18,028 nt of DNA from Kofleriaceae bacterium (GCA_046597055.1 JBKJLC010000081.1:1-18028); one strand, 5' to 3'. Counted from the stretch's first letter, positions 1 through 18,028 are shown. Notes: generated by a model not told the origin, from the letters alone. Numbers and translations are program-made.

Positions 1-1
1 G

Positions 2-91
2 ACGCGCGAATACTTCGAGAACCTCGGCCTGCACCGCCTTCGCGGGACCATCCGCTACCCCGAGCGGCCCTTCTGGAAGGGGCCCGCGTAA
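2..91 (+). CDS. C-terminal fragment of a probable group II intron reverse transcriptase/maturase (partial, 5' end outside window)
   Basis: Open frame TREYFENLGLHRLRGTIRYPERPFWKGPA* ending in TAA at 89-91 with GC-rich third positions. It sits directly before DV. From memory (not searched), the 'F..LGL.RL' ending resembles maturase/DNA-binding C-termini of IEPs that lack an endonuclease domain. Confidence 0.75.
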   Translation, partial: TREYFENLGLHRLRGTIRYPERPFWKGPA

Positions 92-116
92 TGCTGCGAC
101 TCGAGAGATCACCGGT

Positions 117-149
117 ACGCCGTGTGCGGGTAATCCGCACGCACGGTTT
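117..149 (+). ncRNA. Group II intron catalytic domain V
   Basis: Lower stem GCCGTG(119-124)/CACGGT(142-147), 2-nt bulge (140-141), upper stem TGCGG(125-129)/CCGCA(135-139), GTAA(T) loop. About 34 nt long; the triad position reads CGC (118-120). Confidence 0.88.
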
Positions 150-153
150 GAAA

Positions 154-211
154 GGGGGTTCTGCCCTTTCACCTACGACGCAAGTCCCCAAGTGAAAGGG
201 CAGAATCTACC
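154..211 (+). ncRNA. Group II intron domain VI with branch-point adenosine
   Basis: Perfect 14-bp stem TTCTGCCCTTTCAC(159-172)/GTGAAAGGGCAGAA(192-205), extended by GGG(156-158)/TCT(206-208), bulged A209, then GG(154-155)/CC(210-211). Apical GAC-GCAA-GTC GNRA tetraloop at 177-186. Confidence 0.82.
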
Positions 212-212
212 A

Positions 213-983
213 ATGGGTGACCCAGCCAACGCGTTCGGCGACGGCCGCGGCGGTTCGCGGGACGAGCTGGCGCAGCTCGAGACGATCTTCGATCGAGCGC
301 TGGGCACCATGTGGATGGCCTTCCAGCCGATCGTCACGGCCACCGACCGCACCATCTTCGCCTACGAGGCGCTGATGCGGTGCAAGGACAAGGACCTGCC
401 CCACGTGGGCGTCCTGCTCGATGCCGCCGAGCGGCTCGAGCGCACCAGCCAGCTCGGTCGCCTGTCGCGCTCGCAGATCGCAGCGACCTTCAGCACCGCG
501 CCGCCCGAGCGTGGCCTGGTGTTCGTCAACCTCCACCTCCGCGACCTGTTCGACCCGACCCTGTCGTCGCCGTTCAACGGGCTGACCCGGATCGCGCGGC
601 GGGTGGTGCTCGAGATCACCGAGCGCAGCTCGCTCGACGGGATCGATGGCCTCGCCGATCGCGTCGCCGAGCTGCGCGAGATCGGCTACGGGATTGCCGT
701 CGACGATCTGGGTGGTGGTCACTCGCGCATGGCGCACCTCACCCCGCTCGAGTGCGACTTCGTGAAGCTCGACATGTCGCTCGTGCGGGATCTCGACTCG
801 CATCCGGTAAAGCAGCGCCTGGTGCAGTCGGTGGTCGAGCTGTGTCGTGAGAATGGCGTCCGCGTGATCGGCGAAGGGGTCGAGACCGAGCCCGAGGCGG
901 TGACGCTGCGGCAGCTCGGTTGTGACTACCTGCAGGGCTATTTGATCGCCAAGCCCGGCCCCGCGTTTGTTGATCCAGTGTAG
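213..983 (+). CDS. EAL-domain c-di-GMP phosphodiesterase family protein (stand-alone EAL, or 3' exon of an intron-interrupted gene)
   Basis: Motifs AFQPIV, YEALMR, FVNL, LEITE, AVDDLGGGHS, VKLD, EGVET and QGYLIAKP. ATG 213 is preferred because GTG 192 lies inside intron DVI. Confidence 0.9.
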   Translation: MGDPANAFGDGRGGSRDELAQLETIFDRALGTMWMAFQPIVTATDRTIFAYEALMRCKDKDLPHVGVLLDAAERLERTSQLGRLSRSQIAATFSTAPPERGLVFVNLHLRDLFDPTLSSPFNGLTRIARRVVLEITERSSLDGIDGLADRVAELREIGYGIAVDDLGGGHSRMAHLTPLECDFVKLDMSLVRDLDSHPVKQRLVQSVVELCRENGVRVIGEGVETEPEAVTLRQLGCDYLQGYLIAKPGPAFVDPV

Positions 984-2024: not shown

Positions 2025-3173
2025 TCAGAGGACGCGGAGGTCGAGGGCGTAGAGAACGCCGCGGTTCGAGAGGACGAACAGCTCCTGCTCGCCGACCACA
2101 GTGGGGTCGCCGGACACGCCATCGCCCGGATCGAAGTACTCGAGGACCTGGCCGCTGCGCTTGTCGGCGACGAAGACGCCGGCGCCTGCGAGCGCGTAGA
2201 TGAGGTAGTTGCCGGAGACCAGCGGGGCCGCGGGCTCACCACCGCCGCGGGCGCCCTGGCGCCACAACAGGTTGCCGCCGAGGTCGAAGGCGTAGATGCC
2301 CAGATCGGCCGCGGTGACGTAGAGGCGCTCGCCGTCCGTGGTCAGCCCACCGGCGGTGCCGACCGCCTGTGACGGCGACGGGCCCTGCAGCGGGGTCCGC
2401 CACCGGACCAGGCCGGTCGCATGATCGATCGCCCACAGGCCGCCGGTGGACGAGGTCACGTACAGCGTGTCGCCGACCACGACCGGGGTGCCGTCCACGT
2501 CGACGAAGCGGTCGCTGTCGCCCTTGATGGTCGTGAGCCACGCGACCGAGCCGGTCGCGACCCGGAGCGCGACCAGGGTGCCGTTGGCGAACCCGGTGAT
2601 CGCGAGGTCGCCCACCACGGTCACGGCGGCGTGACCGCGGAGCGTGTACTCCTCGGGGGTCTCGCCCTTGTACTGCCAGCGGAAGGTGCCCTTGCGCGCG
2701 TCGAGCGCGTAGACTTGGTCGGCTTCGTTCGAGAAGATCACCAGGTCATCGACGATGACCGGGCTCTCCAGGATCGGGCCGCGGGTCTCGTACTTCCAGG
2801 CCACCGCCCCGGTGAGCAGGTCGACCGCGAGCAGCTCGCCGTCGTCGGTGCCGACGAACAGGCGGGTGCCGGAGATCGTCGGGCGCGAGCTGATCGAGCC
2901 GAGCTGCTGCTGCCAGCGCAGCGCGCCGTCGTCGGCGTTGAGCGCGAAGAAGCGCCCGCCCGACGAGCCGGTGTAGACGTGGTCGCCGGCCGCCGCGATG
3001 CTGGCGAACTCCTGCGGCTCGACCTCGCGCGCCCGGTCGCTGGTGACCAGGCGCCAGCGCATCCGCAGCACCGGGCGCCCGGTGTCTTGCTCCGGCACCG
3101 TCTGCTGGCAACCGCCGCCGAGCAGCGAGGTCGCGGCGATCAGCGCCGCGACGATCCCCGACCGACCGATCAC
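2025..3173 (-). CDS. bamB: BamB-like PQQ-repeat beta-propeller lipoprotein
   Basis: Signal peptide with lipobox-like LGGG-C and repeated 'A(L/V)D..TG...W' blades. Directly downstream of a yfgM-like gene with a 4-nt GTGA overlap, and close to der. Confidence 0.8.
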   Translation of the reverse strand: MIGRSGIVAALIAATSLLGGGCQQTVPEQDTGRPVLRMRWRLVTSDRAREVEPQEFASIAAAGDHVYTGSSGGRFFALNADDGALRWQQQLGSISSRPTISGTRLFVGTDDGELLAVDLLTGAVAWKYETRGPILESPVIVDDLVIFSNEADQVYALDARKGTFRWQYKGETPEEYTLRGHAAVTVVGDLAITGFANGTLVALRVATGSVAWLTTIKGDSDRFVDVDGTPVVVGDTLYVTSSTGGLWAIDHATGLVRWRTPLQGPSPSQAVGTAGGLTTDGERLYVTAADLGIYAFDLGGNLLWRQGARGGGEPAAPLVSGNYLIYALAGAGVFVADKRSGQVLEYFDPGDGVSGDPTVVGEQELFVLSNRGVLYALDLRVL

Positions 3174-4639: not shown

Positions 4640-6258
<1,619 letters not shown>

Positions 6259-6262
<4 letters not shown>

Positions 6263-7335
6263 TGGGCTCCTCCACCGCCACGGCGTTTGCCGCCGCTCTT
6301 GCTCGGCTTCCTGGCGCCGGTCCCACCCACGCCGCCGGCGCTGCCCCCGACCTGACCGACGTAGCCGACCTTGCGCAGCCCGGCTTCCTGGGTGCTCCAG
6401 TCGGGGACGATCTTCACGAACAGCGACAGATGGACCGGGCACCGGAACAACTCGGCCATCGCCTTGCGCGCCGCGATGCCGAGCTCCTTGATGCGGGTGC
6501 CGCCCTTGCCGATCACGATCGCCTTTTGCGAATCGCGCTCGACCGCGATGTAGGCGTCGATGCCGAGGTCGCCGGCGTCGCGCTCCTCGAAGCGCTCGAT
6601 CACGACCGCGGTCGCGTACGGCAGCTCCTGGCCGAGCTGCAGGTAGAGCTGCTCGCGGATCAGCTCGCCGGCGAGGAACTCCTCGGCGCGGTCGGTGACC
6701 ATGTCGGGCGGGAACATCATCGGTCCCACCGGCAGCTTGCGCGCGATGGTCGCGATCAGGTGCTCGACCCCGTCGCCGTGCAGGCCGGCGATCGGGACCA
6801 CGTCGGCGTCAGGCTGGCCCTGGGCGCCGGCCCACGCCGCCCACGCCTCGATCAAGGGCAGCAGGTCGAGCTTGGCGATCTTGTCGACCTTGTTGAGGGC
6901 GATCACGAACGGGACCGCGGCGACCGTGGCGGTGAGGCCCTCGGCGTCGGGATCGGTCAGGCGGCCCGGGTTGCGGCCGCGCGTGTCGGACGCATCGATC
7001 ACCAGCAGGGCAACGTCGCAGTCGGACGCGGCGCCCAGCGCCTCGTCGCGCATGAAGCGCCGCAGGGCGCCCTTGCCATGCTGGATGCCGGGCGTGTCGA
7101 CGAAGCACAGCTCGACGTCGGGTGGCTCGAGATCGGCGATCTTGGTGCGGTGGACGCCGAGGATCCGGTTGCGCGTGGTCTGCGGCTTGGGCGACACCGC
7201 CGCGATCCGCCGATCCAAGATCCGGTTGAGCAGCGTTGACTTGCCGACGTTGGGCAGGCCGACAATCGCGCTGGTCCCGGCGTGGGCCGGGGGGCGCTCG
7301 GAGGCGGCAGGCGTCTCGGCGCCGACGGCAGGCAT
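6259..7335 (-). CDS. era: GTPase Era
   Basis: [38 protein letters not shown], and KH motif [11 protein letters not shown]. Confidence 0.97.
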
Positions 7336-9424: not shown

Positions 9425-14416
<4,992 letters not shown>

Positions 14417-14427
14417 TACGGTCGGGC

Positions 14428-15144
14428 GTGCCGATCGCGCCTCACCCGTACCGCATCGACGATCGCGATCATGTCGGCTTCCTGGCCGTGCCCGACGGCG
14501 ACGCCGGGCCGCGCCCGGGCGTGCTGGTCTTCCCCGAGGCGTTCGGCGTGGTCGAGCACGCGCGCGCCAAAGCCAGCCAGCTCGCCCAGCTCGGCTACGT
14601 CGCCCTCGCCGTCGACCTGTACGGCGGCGGCCAGACCTTCACCGAGCTCGAGCCGGCCCGCGCCGCCACGGCGGTGCTGCGCGCCAACCGCCGCGAGTGG
14701 CGCAAGCGCGCGCGTGCTGGCTACGACACGCTGGCCGCGCACCCGGCGGTCGACGGCGCCCGCCTGGCGGCGATCGGCTTCTGCTTCGGCGGCGCCTCGG
14801 CGATCGAGCTGGCGCGCGCCGGGGCACCGCTGGCGGCGGTCGCGACCTTCCACGCCGCGATCACCCTGCGGATGGCCGACGACCCGCCGTTTCGCAGCAG
14901 CGTGCTGATCTGCGTCGGCGCGGCCGACCCGCTGATCCCGGCCGACACCGTGCACGCGCTCTGCCGCGAGCTCGACCAGGGCGGCGCCGACTGGCAGGTG
15001 CACACCTACGGCGCCACCGTGCACAGCTTCACCAACCCGGCGTCGACCGCCCTCGGCCGGCCCGACACCTTCGGCTACGCGCCGGCCGCCGACCGCCGCT
15101 CGTGGGCCGCGCTCGAACAGCTCCTGCGCGAAGCGCTCACGTGA
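14428..15144 (+). CDS. Dienelactone hydrolase family protein
   Basis: PGVLVFPEAFG, GYVALAVDLYG, nucleophile elbow GFCFGG, GAADPL, and YGATVHSFTN (Cys-Asp-His triad). Confidence 0.92.
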   Translation: MPIAPHPYRIDDRDHVGFLAVPDGDAGPRPGVLVFPEAFGVVEHARAKASQLAQLGYVALAVDLYGGGQTFTELEPARAATAVLRANRREWRKRARAGYDTLAAHPAVDGARLAAIGFCFGGASAIELARAGAPLAAVATFHAAITLRMADDPPFRSSVLICVGAADPLIPADTVHALCRELDQGGADWQVHTYGATVHSFTNPASTALGRPDTFGYAPAADRRSWAALEQLLREALT

Positions 15145-15174: not shown

Positions 15175-16104
15175 CTACGGCGGGGCCGGGTCGCCGCGGC
15201 GGGCCAGCCGCTCGAGGCCCGCGCGGGCGTGGTCGGCGACCGCGGGGTCACGGTGGCTCGCCAGGACCTCGAGGAAGTCGCGGGCGTCGGCGCCGCCGAT
15301 CGTGGTGACCGCCTCGACGACCGTCGCCAGCGCGGTGCGGTCGGCCACGTCGGCGATCGCGGTCAGCGCCGGCACCGCGCGCGGATCGCGCAGGGCCGCC
15401 AGCGCGGTGATCGCGGCCGCGCGCAGCGACGGTTCGCGCTCGAGCCAGGGCACGACCGCGTCGGAAAGCCCAGGCGCCGGCGGCCGGCTGGCGACCAGCT
15501 GCAGCGCCCACAGGGCCAGCGCCGGATCGGCGCCGGTGAGCGCGGGTCGCAGGTCCTCGGTCGACCACAGCGTGATCCGTGCGCCCAGGTCGGCGCACAC
15601 CGCCTCCTGCAGGCGCAGCGTGACCGCGACCACCGCGGTCTCGACGATGCCGCCGATCGGGGTGGCATCGCCAATGACGATCGCGGCCGGCGCCGGGGCG
15701 TCGCCGCTCGCCCAGGTGAGCTGCGCGTCCATGACGACCGCGATCTTGGCGCACGGCGCGGGGCAGTCCGCGGCGACCTCGACCCGCAGCCGCGCCGGGC
15801 GCGGGCTGCGGCCGGGTGGCACCTGGCTGGGCAGTGGGACCAATCGCCCGCCGTCGACCAGGCAGCGGGCCAGATCGCGGCCGAGCTCGCGGCCGAGCAG
15901 CGCGGTCTCGGCGGCGCCGCGCAAGCGGACCTCGACCTCGTCGAGCACGACGGTCTCGAGCACCGGCGCCGGGTCGACCGCGGCGGGCGCCGGCTCGGTC
16001 ACGGTGGTGGGGGCGGCGTCACCGGCCGGGGGCTTGCCCCGGCTGCCCCCGCGGCAGGCCGTCGGCGCGAGGCCAAGCACCAGGAAGAACAGCGCCCGGC
16101 TCAC
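15175..16104 (-). CDS. HEAT-repeat-containing putative lipoprotein
   Basis: Signal peptide with lipobox-like PTA-C and C-terminal HEAT/PBS-like repeats (LRAAAITALAALRDPRAVPAL). GTGA overlap with the GNAT stop. Confidence 0.75.
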   Translation of the reverse strand: MSRALFFLVLGLAPTACRGGSRGKPPAGDAAPTTVTEPAPAAVDPAPVLETVVLDEVEVRLRGAAETALLGRELGRDLARCLVDGGRLVPLPSQVPPGRSPRPARLRVEVAADCPAPCAKIAVVMDAQLTWASGDAPAPAAIVIGDATPIGGIVETAVVAVTLRLQEAVCADLGARITLWSTEDLRPALTGADPALALWALQLVASRPPAPGLSDAVVPWLEREPSLRAAAITALAALRDPRAVPALTAIADVADRTALATVVEAVTTIGGADARDFLEVLASHRDPAVADHARAGLERLARRGDPAPP

Positions 16105-16586
16105 AGCTCCTTATAATAGGTGATGAGCGCGTCGCCAGGCGCGTAGAAGTCGCGCAGCCGGGCGACCTCGGGATACCCGAGTCGCGCGTAGAGCCGGCGC
16201 GCCGCCCCGTATCCCTCGGTCTCGCTGGTCTCGACCCGGACCTGGCCGCCGCCACGGCCGCGCAGGCTCGCCTCCATCGCCGCGACCAGCGCGCCCGCCA
16301 GCCCGCGCCCACGCGCACGCTCGTGGACGATCACCCAGTACAGATCGTAGGTTCGCGCCGTCATCGGGGTGCGCCCGAAGCACACGTACCCGACCACCCC
16401 GGTGGCGTCGACCGCGACCAGCACCTCGTAGTCGGTGGTGCTCTCGATCGCCGAGTCGACCAGCTCGAGCGCGACCTCCTGCTCGTCGGACTTGAAGGTC
16501 GCGTCCGACCCGATCACCGCGAGCAGGCCGTCGCGATCGCCGGGCTCGACCGGTCGGATCGCGGCGTCGGTCGCTCGGTCGGTCAC
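16101..16586 (-). CDS. GNAT family N-acetyltransferase
   Basis: The C-terminal 161 aa of the listed 605-aa ORF: VVGYVCFG, YDLYWVIVHERARGRGLAGAL (acetyl-CoA motif A), VETS and ARRLYARLGY. GTG 16586 overlaps the stop of the ATP-grasp gene. Confidence 0.9.
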   Translation of the reverse strand: MTDRATDAAIRPVEPGDRDGLLAVIGSDATFKSDEQEVALELVDSAIESTTDYEVLVAVDATGVVGYVCFGRTPMTARTYDLYWVIVHERARGRGLAGALVAAMEASLRGRGGGQVRVETSETEGYGAARRLYARLGYPEVARLRDFYAPGDALITYYKEL

Positions 16587-17608
16587 GGCTGGCCTCGGCC
16601 GGCCCGACGCCAGGCCAGCTCGGCGATCCGCGAGACCAGCGCCGGGTAGCTCATGCCGGCGACCGCCGCCGCGCGCGCGACCCCGGCGTCCGGCGAGATG
16701 TCGCAGTTGGGATTGACGTCGATCACCCACGGCACGCCGGCGGCGTCGATGCGCAGGTCGATGCGGCCGTAGTCGCGCAGCCCGACCGCGTGCCACGCCG
16801 CGCGCGCGGTCTGCTCGATCGCGGCCTGCAGCGCCGGCGATGCATCGCGGATCGGCACCGGCCGGGTGCCGTCGTAGTCGACGTGGGCCTCGTCCCACTT
16901 GGCCGCATAGCTGACGATGTGAGGGCGCCCGGCCGGCATCGCGGCGAAGTCGATCTCGTGCATTGGCAACATCTCGACGTGGGGGCCCCAGCCGAGCAGC
17001 GTGACGTTGACCTCGCGGCCCTCGACGTAGCGCTCGGCCAGGAGCGGCGAGCCGAACTCGGCGAGCAGCGCCTTGGCCCGGGCCGCCAGCGCCGCGCCGT
17101 CGACCAGCACGTTGGCCTCGGTGATGCCGACCGAGGCGTCCTCGTTGGCGAGCTTGAGGAACCACGGGTAGTCGAGCGGCTCGGCGGCGACCCGCTCGAC
17201 GTCGGCGAGGGTGGCCATGACCCGGTAGGGCGGGGTCGCGATGCCGCGGCCGATCAGGACGTCCTTGGTCCGCGGCTTGAACAGCGCCATGCCGAGGCCC
17301 ATGGTGTCGCTGCCGGTGTAGGCGATGCCGTGGAGGTCGAGCACCGCCGGCACCGCCAGCTCGTTGCGGGCGACGCCGCACAGCGACTCGCACAGGTTGA
17401 AGACCAGATCGGGCTGGTCGCGCACGAGCCGGCCGAGGACCTCCACGAGGTCGCGGCCCTGCATCGAGACCAGATCGGCGTCGTGGCCGGCGACCACCAG
17501 CGCGTCGCGGATGGCCTGGGCCGAGGCGCGCACCGCGGCGGCGTCGGCGCCAGCGCCGGCGATGAACTCGAAGTCGTTGTTGAACAGCACCGCGATGCGA
17601 AGGCCCAC
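16583..17608 (-). CDS. D-Ala-D-Ala ligase-like ATP-grasp enzyme (non-canonical subfamily)
   Basis: PDLVFNLCES, YTGS, FLKLANEDASVGI, ERYVEGREVNV, SYAAKW, RDYGRIDLR and IDVNPN. It lacks the canonical Ddl GG.S.E and HG..GEDG motifs. Confidence 0.88.
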   Translation of the reverse strand: MGLRIAVLFNNDFEFIAGAGADAAAVRASAQAIRDALVVAGHDADLVSMQGRDLVEVLGRLVRDQPDLVFNLCESLCGVARNELAVPAVLDLHGIAYTGSDTMGLGMALFKPRTKDVLIGRGIATPPYRVMATLADVERVAAEPLDYPWFLKLANEDASVGITEANVLVDGAALAARAKALLAEFGSPLLAERYVEGREVNVTLLGWGPHVEMLPMHEIDFAAMPAGRPHIVSYAAKWDEAHVDYDGTRPVPIRDASPALQAAIEQTARAAWHAVGLRDYGRIDLRIDAAGVPWVIDVNPNCDISPDAGVARAAAVAGMSYPALVSRIAELAWRRAGRGQP

Positions 17609-17614
17609 GCACCG

Positions 17615-17620
17615 ATTCTA
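17615..17620 (-). promoter_or_regulatory. -10 element TAGAAT, 6 nt before the GTG of the ATP-grasp gene (probable leaderless promoter)
   Basis: The minus strand reads TAGAAT-cggtgc-GTG; it lies in an AT-rich patch within very GC-rich DNA, with no SD. Confidence 0.6.
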
Positions 17621-17671
17621 CATGATTGTGATCTGCCCGTGCCGGCTCGCGTTTTCGCTGGCGTGGCTGCG

Positions 17672-18028
17672 CTACAGGCCGAGCGCGGCCGCGAGGCGCG
17701 GACCGACGCGCGCGGCCATGACCGAGACGGGCGGCGGTGGCGGCAGCCCGCGCGTGGCACAGGCCTCGGCGAGCGAGACCACCGGCGTCGGCAGGCCGCA
17801 CGGCACGATCGCCGACCAGGCGTCGGCGGGCGTGGCCAGGTTCCACGCCCAGCCGTGGATCGCGACCTGCCGGCGGAGGTGCAGGCCGCACGCGGCCAGC
17901 TTCGCGCCGTCGAGCCACAGCCCGGCCGGCTCGCGGCGGAACGCGGCGCCGTCGACGCCGAGCTCGGCGCAGGCCTCGGCGAGCACGCCGGCGACCGCAG
18001 CCAGGAAGCTGATCACGCCCGCACGCAG
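17672..18028 (-). CDS. lipB: Lipoyl(octanoyl) transferase LipB, C-terminal part (partial)
   Basis: GLWLDGAKLAACGL, IHGWAWN and IVPCGL match the LipB catalytic Lys and Cys motifs; the frame is open to the window end. Confidence 0.88.
   Translation of the reverse strand: MRAGVISFLAAVAGVLAEACAELGVDGAAFRREPAGLWLDGAKLAACGLHLRRQVAIHGWAWNLATPADAWSAIVPCGLPTPVVSLAEACATRGLPPPPPVSVMAARVGPRLAAALGL

Follow-up and report, generated by a model that had tools for sequence, protein, structure and literature searches.

What does it mean that a group II intron ends exactly in the start codon of a bacterial gene? The question is raised by the beginning of a contig from a Kofleriaceae bacterium (GCA_046597055.1 JBKJLC010000081.1:1-18028; contig C251 of the genome here called G000), the whole 18,028 nucleotides (nt) of which were analysed and are referred to as the window. 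Its first base is a contig end that lies inside the intron, the intron body being outside the window, and the intron's 3' end adjoins a gene for an EAL-domain protein. The best explanation, and in our view a very probable one, is that the element belongs to a lineage of group II introns that sits behind the start codons of leaderless genes and uses the captured host promoter and ATG. This explanation is carried by the anatomy of the element, the junction pattern across the lineage, orthologous sites that lack the intron, an open frame running through the ribozyme and the complementarity of exon-binding site 1 (EBS1) to the start codon.

The window opens with the last 29 codons and the TAA stop of a reverse transcriptase (RT)/maturase gene (positions 2-91, plus strand) that is cut by the contig end. 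Nucleotides 2-88, followed by the stop at 89-91, encode a peptide ending in YFENLGLHRLRGTIRYPERPFWKGPA, which agrees with the C-terminal end of the intron-encoded protein in full-length relatives (P0001 of locus L042). Domain V (DV; 113-150, plus strand) was recognised by its fold and by a match to the Rfam family Intron_gpII (RF00029), and domain VI (DVI; 154-211, plus strand) by its fold as a hairpin with a single bulge, A209, the candidate branch point. The segment 108-216 folds with -50.7 kcal/mol (z -5.4) into a DV-like hairpin (~113-150) and the long DVI (154-211), and none of 200 shuffled sequences folded as well. DVI is followed by A212, A213, T214 and G215, a tail AAUG (212-215, plus strand) in which ATG213-215 would be an intron-borne start codon in frame with codon 2 of the host gene. 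A preliminary description of this DNA had reported DVI closing at C211, the adjoining AATG, the bulged A209 and the in-frame ATG of the EAL gene, all of which were confirmed by fold and sequence.

The Intron_gpII match in the window (115-172, 29.3 bits, E 8.8e-4) lies under the gathering score of 40, and the Rfam scan of the window returned no match at gathering level. Two sister copies score 37.9 bits, and five full-length relatives exceed the cut-off with 41.3-47.4 bits and also match group-II-D1D4-4 with 69-86 bits. The DVI sequence differs between sublineages, its closing strand (ending in TCTACC) being kept. With DV, a branch-point A, a GUGYG 5' end and RT and maturase domains found across the copies, positions 1-215 are recognisable as the 3' end of a group II intron. 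The DV triad of the window copy reads CGC owing to C118 and that of the sister copies AGC; an A stands at this position in both sister copies and in all contigs of four public DNA runs. Either the consensus is in error at C118, or this copy has acquired an inactivating change of its own.

The host gene (213-983, plus strand) encodes a stand-alone EAL-domain protein of 256 amino acids (aa) that belongs to the cyclic di-GMP phosphodiesterase family (Pfam PF00563, 4.8e-47, residues 31-248), and no Shine-Dalgarno motif was found ahead of ATG213. Each of the 16 further genomes from the genus has a matching orthologue (73-81% identity), and the intron was absent from all 11 orthologue loci that were read. 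Nine of these 11 have a TANNNT box, a spacer of 6-9 nt and a single ATG or GTG start without a Shine-Dalgarno motif, the exceptions being L177, which lacks TANNNT, and L173, which is uncertain. The lack of an accessible Shine-Dalgarno motif proposed in the preliminary description therefore stands, but masking by the DVI stem is not required to explain it, because the intron-less orthologues lack the motif too. The comparison with intron-less alleles proposed there revealed a single start codon at the insertion position; at L182, for example, the site reads TATCTT GCGGTC GTG GGC GAT CCG (V-G-D-P), against M-G-D-P in the window. The EAL gene thus appears to be natively of the leaderless type.

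The end of a conserved upstream gene precedes the promoter region in eight of the 11 orthologue loci, and in G000 the homologue of this gene sits at the end of contig C32, followed by TATCCT GACGGGG ATG/GTGCG (a slash marks an exon-intron boundary). The search for the intron's 5' end thus led to GTGCG behind an ATG, next to the EAL gene's upstream neighbour. Since that gene precedes the EAL gene in relatives, the C32 end can be taken as the 5' exon of the window's intron, and TATCCT-N7-ATG/GTGCG as its own 5' junction. The occupied site would then consist of the -10 box, 7 nt, ATG, the intron from GTGCG to CCAATG, and GGT GAC CCA, so that compared with the empty site the insertion would amount to the intron plus one extra ATG. 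Contigs of the four public DNA runs that were compared with the window contained no empty-site allele.

The same arrangement is repeated elsewhere in G000. All three intron 3' ends of this genome read CTACCAATG and are followed by three unrelated open frames (EAL, His_kinase and unknown). The same 115 nt as in the window form the ends of two further contigs, C191 and C155 (99% identity), and the open reading frames (ORFs) behind their copies encode 250 aa without a Pfam match and 370 aa with a His_kinase domain; nt 1-101 of the window are unique in the assembly. Four contig ends carry the intron's 5' end (C32, C126, C128 and C129), all with TA(T/C)CCT, 6-7 nt and ATG/GTGCGTCGTGACG, GTGCG thus standing at all four 5' junctions. 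Contig ends of G000 overlap by 115-117 nt, the maturase family GIIM (PF08388) has no match in the genome (completeness 94%), and the multi-copy intron body is unassembled. Contig depth over window positions 1-216 is ~6-7 times that over 239-1000, in the EAL gene, in three public DNA runs (X1-X3), which fits several intron copies per genome, although other organisms of the metagenome may contribute.

Beyond G000, a DNA search across the family, whose 138 genomes include G000, gave matches in 53 (a count including G038), and all 29 loci returned end in CCAATG and continue into unrelated sequences, several of them lipoprotein-type signal peptides. An exact DV-sequence pattern scan over GTDB species genomes, which samples only DV-bearing loci, yielded at least 120 loci, 115 of them assessable. 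Among the matches listed, 91 of the 115 end in CC(A/T)(A/G)TG and are spread over at least nine named phyla: Myxococcota (29), Acidobacteriota (21), Pseudomonadota (18), Planctomycetota (9), Gemmatimonadota and Spirochaetota (2 each) and Actinomycetota, Rokuibacteriota and Eiseniibacteriota (1 each), with the phylum not given for 7. The remaining 24 are other intron types with the same DV, mostly of Paenibacillaceae, Lentisphaerota and the 'GACTCTAC' type. The layout recurs on an Embleya replicon (Actinomycetota), which reads TACGGT gcgtcc ATG/GTGCG and, at the 3' end, CTACCAATG. The preliminary proposal of an intron lineage that lands on start codons and keeps an in-frame ATG is thus supported by all three copies in G000, all 29 in the family and 91 of the 115 GTDB loci.

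The final triplet at 122 unique 3' junctions is ATG in 117 and GTG in 5. The GTG form is common to related copies of Vicinamibacterales (L068, L085 and L100), and the 5' exon of L085 is ATG; the triplet follows intron kinship and not the 5' exon, which indicates that it is part of the intron, not of the target. At 102 of 116 junctions the 3' ATG opens a frame of at least 60 codons; the other two frames reach this length at 29 and 63 junctions. The opposite pattern, copies followed by random sequence without enrichment for an in-frame ATG, was named in the preliminary description as evidence against it and was not what the junctions displayed.

Several copies deviate from the full-length form. 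L056 (a Hyphomicrobium metagenome-assembled genome) combines a normal 5' junction (ATG/GTGCGCC) and EBS1 hairpin with a 3' end CTACCAGGAC that lacks the terminal ATG, and no 3' motif was found at L049. Internally deleted, enzyme-less derivatives of 190-1338 nt keep both ends and the -10 box with ATG (L010, L033, L036, L058, L060, L088, L099, L108, L118 and L125), and three copies of Burkholderiales type are each 919 nt long, a hint of non-autonomous elements mobilised in trans. In many copies the closing strand of DVI together with the tail resembles a second leaderless promoter core (TAGGAT-CTACCA-ATG; CAGAAT-CTACCA-ATG at window positions 199-215). An outward promoter in the intron tail was considered and rejected, as sublineages with TGAGAT, CTGATT or CCCCAT do not fit it; a simple scan of window positions 1-400 gave no sigma-70-like outward promoter site.

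The 5' side of the insertion was examined with a profile of the intron's first 130 nt, which located 35 junctions in relatives. GTGCG stands at nearly all of these, the exceptions being L052 (TCGCG), L124 (GTGTG) and the partial match L114. Leaving out L091 and L114 (incomplete exon or profile match) and adding the family copies gave 38 unique 5' junctions; the family copies L037 and L041 were left out of the counts, their 5' ends having neither an ATG before GTGCG nor an enzyme frame by which they could be placed. The start codon at these 38 junctions is ATG in 37 and GTG in one. A TANNNT box is present in 37 of the 38, at a distance of 6 nt (22 junctions), 7 nt (11) or 8 nt (4), the exception being GACAAT; with the four junctions of G000 it is found in 41 of 42. 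As a control, the box stands ahead of only 23 of 2753 other ATGs in the same loci (0.8%). Four Shine-Dalgarno-like 4-mers were noticed at the 5' junctions, three overlapping a TAGGAT box itself and one lying in the spacer (L124). Nothing further upstream is conserved beyond TANNNT, the GC-rich spacer of 6-8 nt and ATG.

Identical intron copies of one genome have different hexamers, spacers and upstream DNA (L044/L045/L046; C32/C126/C128/C129), which argues that the 5' flanks are host promoters of leaderless genes, each with its start codon. As far as can be read from these junctions, the lineage is confined to a single position, immediately behind the start codon of leaderless genes. The preliminary suggestion that the site would coincide with the transcription start of such genes, leaving almost no 5' exon, agrees with the -10 boxes 6-8 nt before the ATG. 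At L052, L099 and L121 the in-frame ORF downstream extends over 7-11 codons, and the 5' flank has a normal -10 box and ATG; the targets here may be mini-ORFs of the leaderless type, or simply transcripts whose first bases are AUG.

A hairpin ~230-280 nt into the intron (GAGCCG-NNCATNNN-CGGCGAAG) contains a CAT that is invariant in all 28 full-length copies. Three of three related introns with ordinary homing have a homologous loop whose sequence complements the final 6 nt of their own 5' exons (L087: loop AACAAA, exon TTTGTT; L076: TGAATA, TATTCA; L084: TAAGTA, TATTTA, with one G.U pair), which identifies the hairpin loop as EBS1. In the present lineage EBS1 appears to be reduced to CAU, complementary to AUG; exon position -4 varies, and the loop base facing it varies too. 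Because ATG flanks both junctions, a comparison of DNA leaves the register free within the triplet. We favour ATG/GUGCG...CCAAUG/codon 2, with a predicted 3' splice site at 215/216, because the intron then begins with GUGCG, EBS1 CAU pairs with AUG and the branch A is the 7th base from the end.

The frame of the intron-encoded enzyme is continuous with the host start codon. From the ATG of the 5' exon it is open through domains I-III and the YADD motif to the enzyme's stop in 21 of 28 full-length copies (626-680 codons), the other seven being visibly frameshifted or carrying stops. Strains with intact copies include Sorangium sp. So ce176 (L117), Polyangium fumosum DSM 14668 (L112 and L115) and Embleya sp. 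NBC_00896 (L183). In the 21 intact copies nt 1-540 are free of stops in frame 0, against 3-8 stops in either of the other frames. Eight different lengths separate intron nt 1 from the RT0 motif among 22 copies (639-693 nt), all multiples of three, and the six out-of-frame distances belong to decayed copies. This continuity points to selection for a frame joined to the host start codon. The enzyme of L042 matches Pfam RVT_1 (1.2e-35) and GIIM (9.9e-16), shows no HNH or endonuclease family in Pfam and ends 44 residues after GIIM. Its best matches among solved structures are RTs of group II introns (IIC, 7e-59 and 1.6e-55; IIB, 2.8e-50; LtrA, 1e-48), a ranking that is not decisive for the class. 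A quick maximum-likelihood tree places the lineage's 22 enzymes together to one side of a branch, with a weak split (51) from the long-branched Paenibacillus sequence L087 and a strong one (99) from four other DV-sharing introns. Phyla are intermixed in this tree, which implies horizontal spread.

From these elements the following course of events may be proposed. With the host's -10 box 6-8 nt upstream of the ATG, the A would be the first transcribed base, leaving AUG alone as the precursor's 5' exon. The three-base EBS1 (CAU) in domain I would pair with this exon and set the 5' splice site before GUGCG, and splicing would restore the original leaderless mRNA. The last three bases of the intron, AUG (GUG in one sublineage), would lie in frame with host codon 2, and the DNA of inserted sites always shows an intact host ORF. 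Given a frame without stops from the host ATG across domains I-III, leaderless initiation at the captured ATG probably accounts for at least part of the enzyme's synthesis, translation passing through these ribozyme domains.

Among the alternatives, the one that survives best dispenses with active targeting: the intron would insert after many ATGs, and only copies behind leaderless starts would persist, since there the enzyme is made and the host gene kept. The 5' exons conserve only TANNNT, spacer and ATG, with the middle of the hexamer and the spacer length varying, which speaks against recognition by base pairing and suits this account, as does the dependence of the enzyme's frame on the host ATG. 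However, 37 of the 38 unique 5' junctions lie behind a -10 box, including those of decayed and internally deleted copies (190-1338 nt), and the three copies with very short downstream ORFs (L052, L099 and L121) have box and ATG as well. No dead-on-arrival copy at an internal ATG was seen among the DV-bearing loci scanned, a scan that could miss such copies. Persistence without targeting is, in our judgement, rather unlikely.

Recognition of the open promoter complex by the intron ribonucleoprotein would make this a fourth target mode, the 3-nt EBS1 reading ATG at the downstream edge of the bubble; we offer it as a speculation that is more probably wrong than right by a wide measure. At a leaderless promoter the non-template strand would be single-stranded from the -10 box to about +3, and the intron would reverse-splice there. 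Once inserted, it would be transcribed from +1 with a 3-nt 5' exon, and its enzyme would be made through the ribozyme by 70S leaderless initiation. Splicing, or the spare AUG at the intron's end, would return the start codon to the host. Translation of the ribozyme would moreover act as a gate on its folding, and intron activity would thereby depend on the host promoter.

The register of the insertion was seen differently in the preliminary description, which let the intron end in AU at T214 and placed it inside the start codon (AT/G), its 5' boundary then lying a single base upstream of GUGCG. That register respects the usual AY end of group II introns (consensus quoted by Abebe et al. 2013), and since ATG flanks both junctions, neither the empty site nor the spliced mRNA would differ between registers within the triplet. 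The intron would, however, begin with GGUGCG, the EBS1 CAU pairs with the whole AUG, and the branch A would be the 6th and not the 7th base from the end. On these grounds the AT/G register is improbable. The shortened spacing between branch point and 3' splice site inferred from it disappears in the preferred register ATG/GUGCG...CCAAUG; of the non-standard 3' junction suspected earlier, the intron end in UG instead of AY remains, the spacing being canonical.

A promoter and start codon carried by the mobile element itself (-10 box and ATG), with host gene starts coinciding by chance, would explain why every copy has the same architecture in its 5' flank, but the identical copies of one genome differ in hexamer, spacer and upstream DNA, and the intron-less EAL orthologues already have box, spacer and start codon; we consider this origin of the promoter extremely unlikely. 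Chance could place a single intron end beside so short a word as ATG213, but with the pattern in all copies of G000, all loci of the family and 91 of the 115 assessable GTDB loci it deserves virtually no credence.

The preferred explanation, an intron lineage behind leaderless start codons, has to be weighed against several points. We infer from sequences both the transcription start at the A of the ATG with splicing of a 3-nt exon and the enzyme's use of the host ATG and choice of target. A UG end is at odds with the AY consensus, and a free 3-nt 5' exon held by three base pairs is mechanically awkward for the second step of splicing. At 14 of the 116 junctions no ORF of 60 codons lies behind the ATG, and the other two frames are often open too in this GC-rich DNA, which makes frame statistics alone weak. 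In 18 of 19 distinct intact copies an internal Met lies 25-30 residues before RT0, after a purine-rich stretch like GGGAAGGG; the open upstream frame could serve another purpose, and both enzyme starts are possible. The window's own copy may be dead, in view of C118 in the DV triad and of the C32 end, which jumps at ~nt 85 of domain I to RT0 coding sequence and from there to a perfect inverted repeat (within the contig's first ~350 bases, read as reverse complement, and not part of the window). It may be a decaying deletion derivative, or both features may be assembly artefacts, the latter a chimeric contig end. Finally, the likeness of the enzyme to proteins labelled class F rests on motif strings matched by text in the supplement of Waldern et al. 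2020, not on an alignment.

Group II introns tied to translation signals have been described before. The IIB1/CL1 clade at start and stop codons (Michel et al. 2007, in the account of Gomes et al. 2025, PMC12584367) resembles the present lineage in that a functional codon survives insertion, the UAA of groEL turning into UAG in that clade and an ATG being supplied in this lineage. The RT of that clade is of the CL1 type and carries an endonuclease domain; its EBS1/EBS2/EBS2a pairings are long and canonical, it homes to one gene, its subdomain Ia measures 300-700 nt and its range is proteobacterial. The present lineage, in contrast, lacks the endonuclease domain, has a 3-nt EBS1, occupies dozens of unrelated host genes, spends ~560 nt on domains I-III together and extends over at least nine phyla; behind GUGCG it has only a variable hairpin of ~40-55 nt. 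Membership in the known IIB1 start/stop-codon clade was rejected, every defining feature tested being different.

IIC introns, including those at attC sites, share with the lineage a target set by functional or structural context, a very short pairing of EBS1 with intron-binding site 1 (IBS1) and an enzyme without endonuclease domain. IIC-attC introns reportedly carry outward promoters for the downstream gene (PMC3001079). Insertion of IIC introns takes place after terminator hairpins or attC, whereas the present lineage is found at the other end of genes, with promoters as 5' flanks. The published boundary consensus of IIC (5' GUNYGCCNRGCAUGG ... CCUACYCGAU 3'; PMC4028801) does not fit the lineage boundaries 5' GUGCGUCGUGACGA ... 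GAUCUACCAAUG 3'. Assignment to class C was rejected as well, the flanks not being terminators and the boundary sequences differing.

The closest published labels point to class F. An intron of Mycolicibacterium vanbaalenii PYR-1 (NC_008726.1:2360135-2362110) is labelled F in Tables S1-S3 of Waldern et al. 2020; its enzyme shares the motif strings KVRQLQR.LWAAAK...RRFHALYD...RNRGAAGVD with the lineage, a match of text and not an alignment, and an amidase gene on the same strand lies just downstream of the intron. The label F is also given to a Paenibacillaceae intron whose motifs are similar, and the Paenibacillus intron L087 groups with the lineage in the tree. The related ordinary introns L087, L076 and L084 have an EBS1 of 6 nt, in contrast to CAU here. 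The main text of Waldern et al. 2020 and the review by Zimmerly and Semper 2015 make no mention of targeting to start codons or leaderless genes; the latter distinguishes only three target specificities, namely homing sites, terminators and attC. No account of group II introns at leaderless start codons was found in the literature searched, where Michel et al. 2007 or Simon et al. 2008 could hold one.

Reading of the intron ORF from the host's translation start through ribozyme sequence has a parallel in organellar introns. In yeast aI1 and aI2 the upstream exon and the intron ORF form a single fused frame. The organellar cases are mid-gene mitochondrial insertions with long exon fusions, whereas the 'exon' of the present lineage is the start codon of a bacterial leaderless gene. 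For organellar introns of groups I and II, 'core creep' and a phase-0 bias have been described in PMC8393795.

If the preferred explanation is true, a clade in at least nine phyla behind leaderless start codons would represent a fourth target mode of bacterial group II introns. It would raise the questions of how a ribozyme splices with a three-base 5' exon, how a site defined by a promoter and ATG is found, and whether a bacterial intron enzyme is translated from a host start codon through the ribozyme, as in yeast mitochondria. Each copy would mark a leaderless gene start with single-base precision in uncultured genomes, and gene callers will mis-place or fuse start sites around such elements. 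A retroelement that leaves the host gene formally intact might also suit gene-neutral insertion tools.

The remainder of the window carries genes for a BamB-like protein (2028-3173, minus strand), Der/EngA (4643-6442, minus strand), Era (6262-7335, minus strand), a dienelactone hydrolase (14428-15141) and a GNAT-domain protein (16104-17918, minus strand). An ORF of 1663 aa (9425-14416, plus strand) combines a Ser/Thr protein kinase with GAF, sigma-54 activator AAA+ and Fis-type helix-turn-helix domains.

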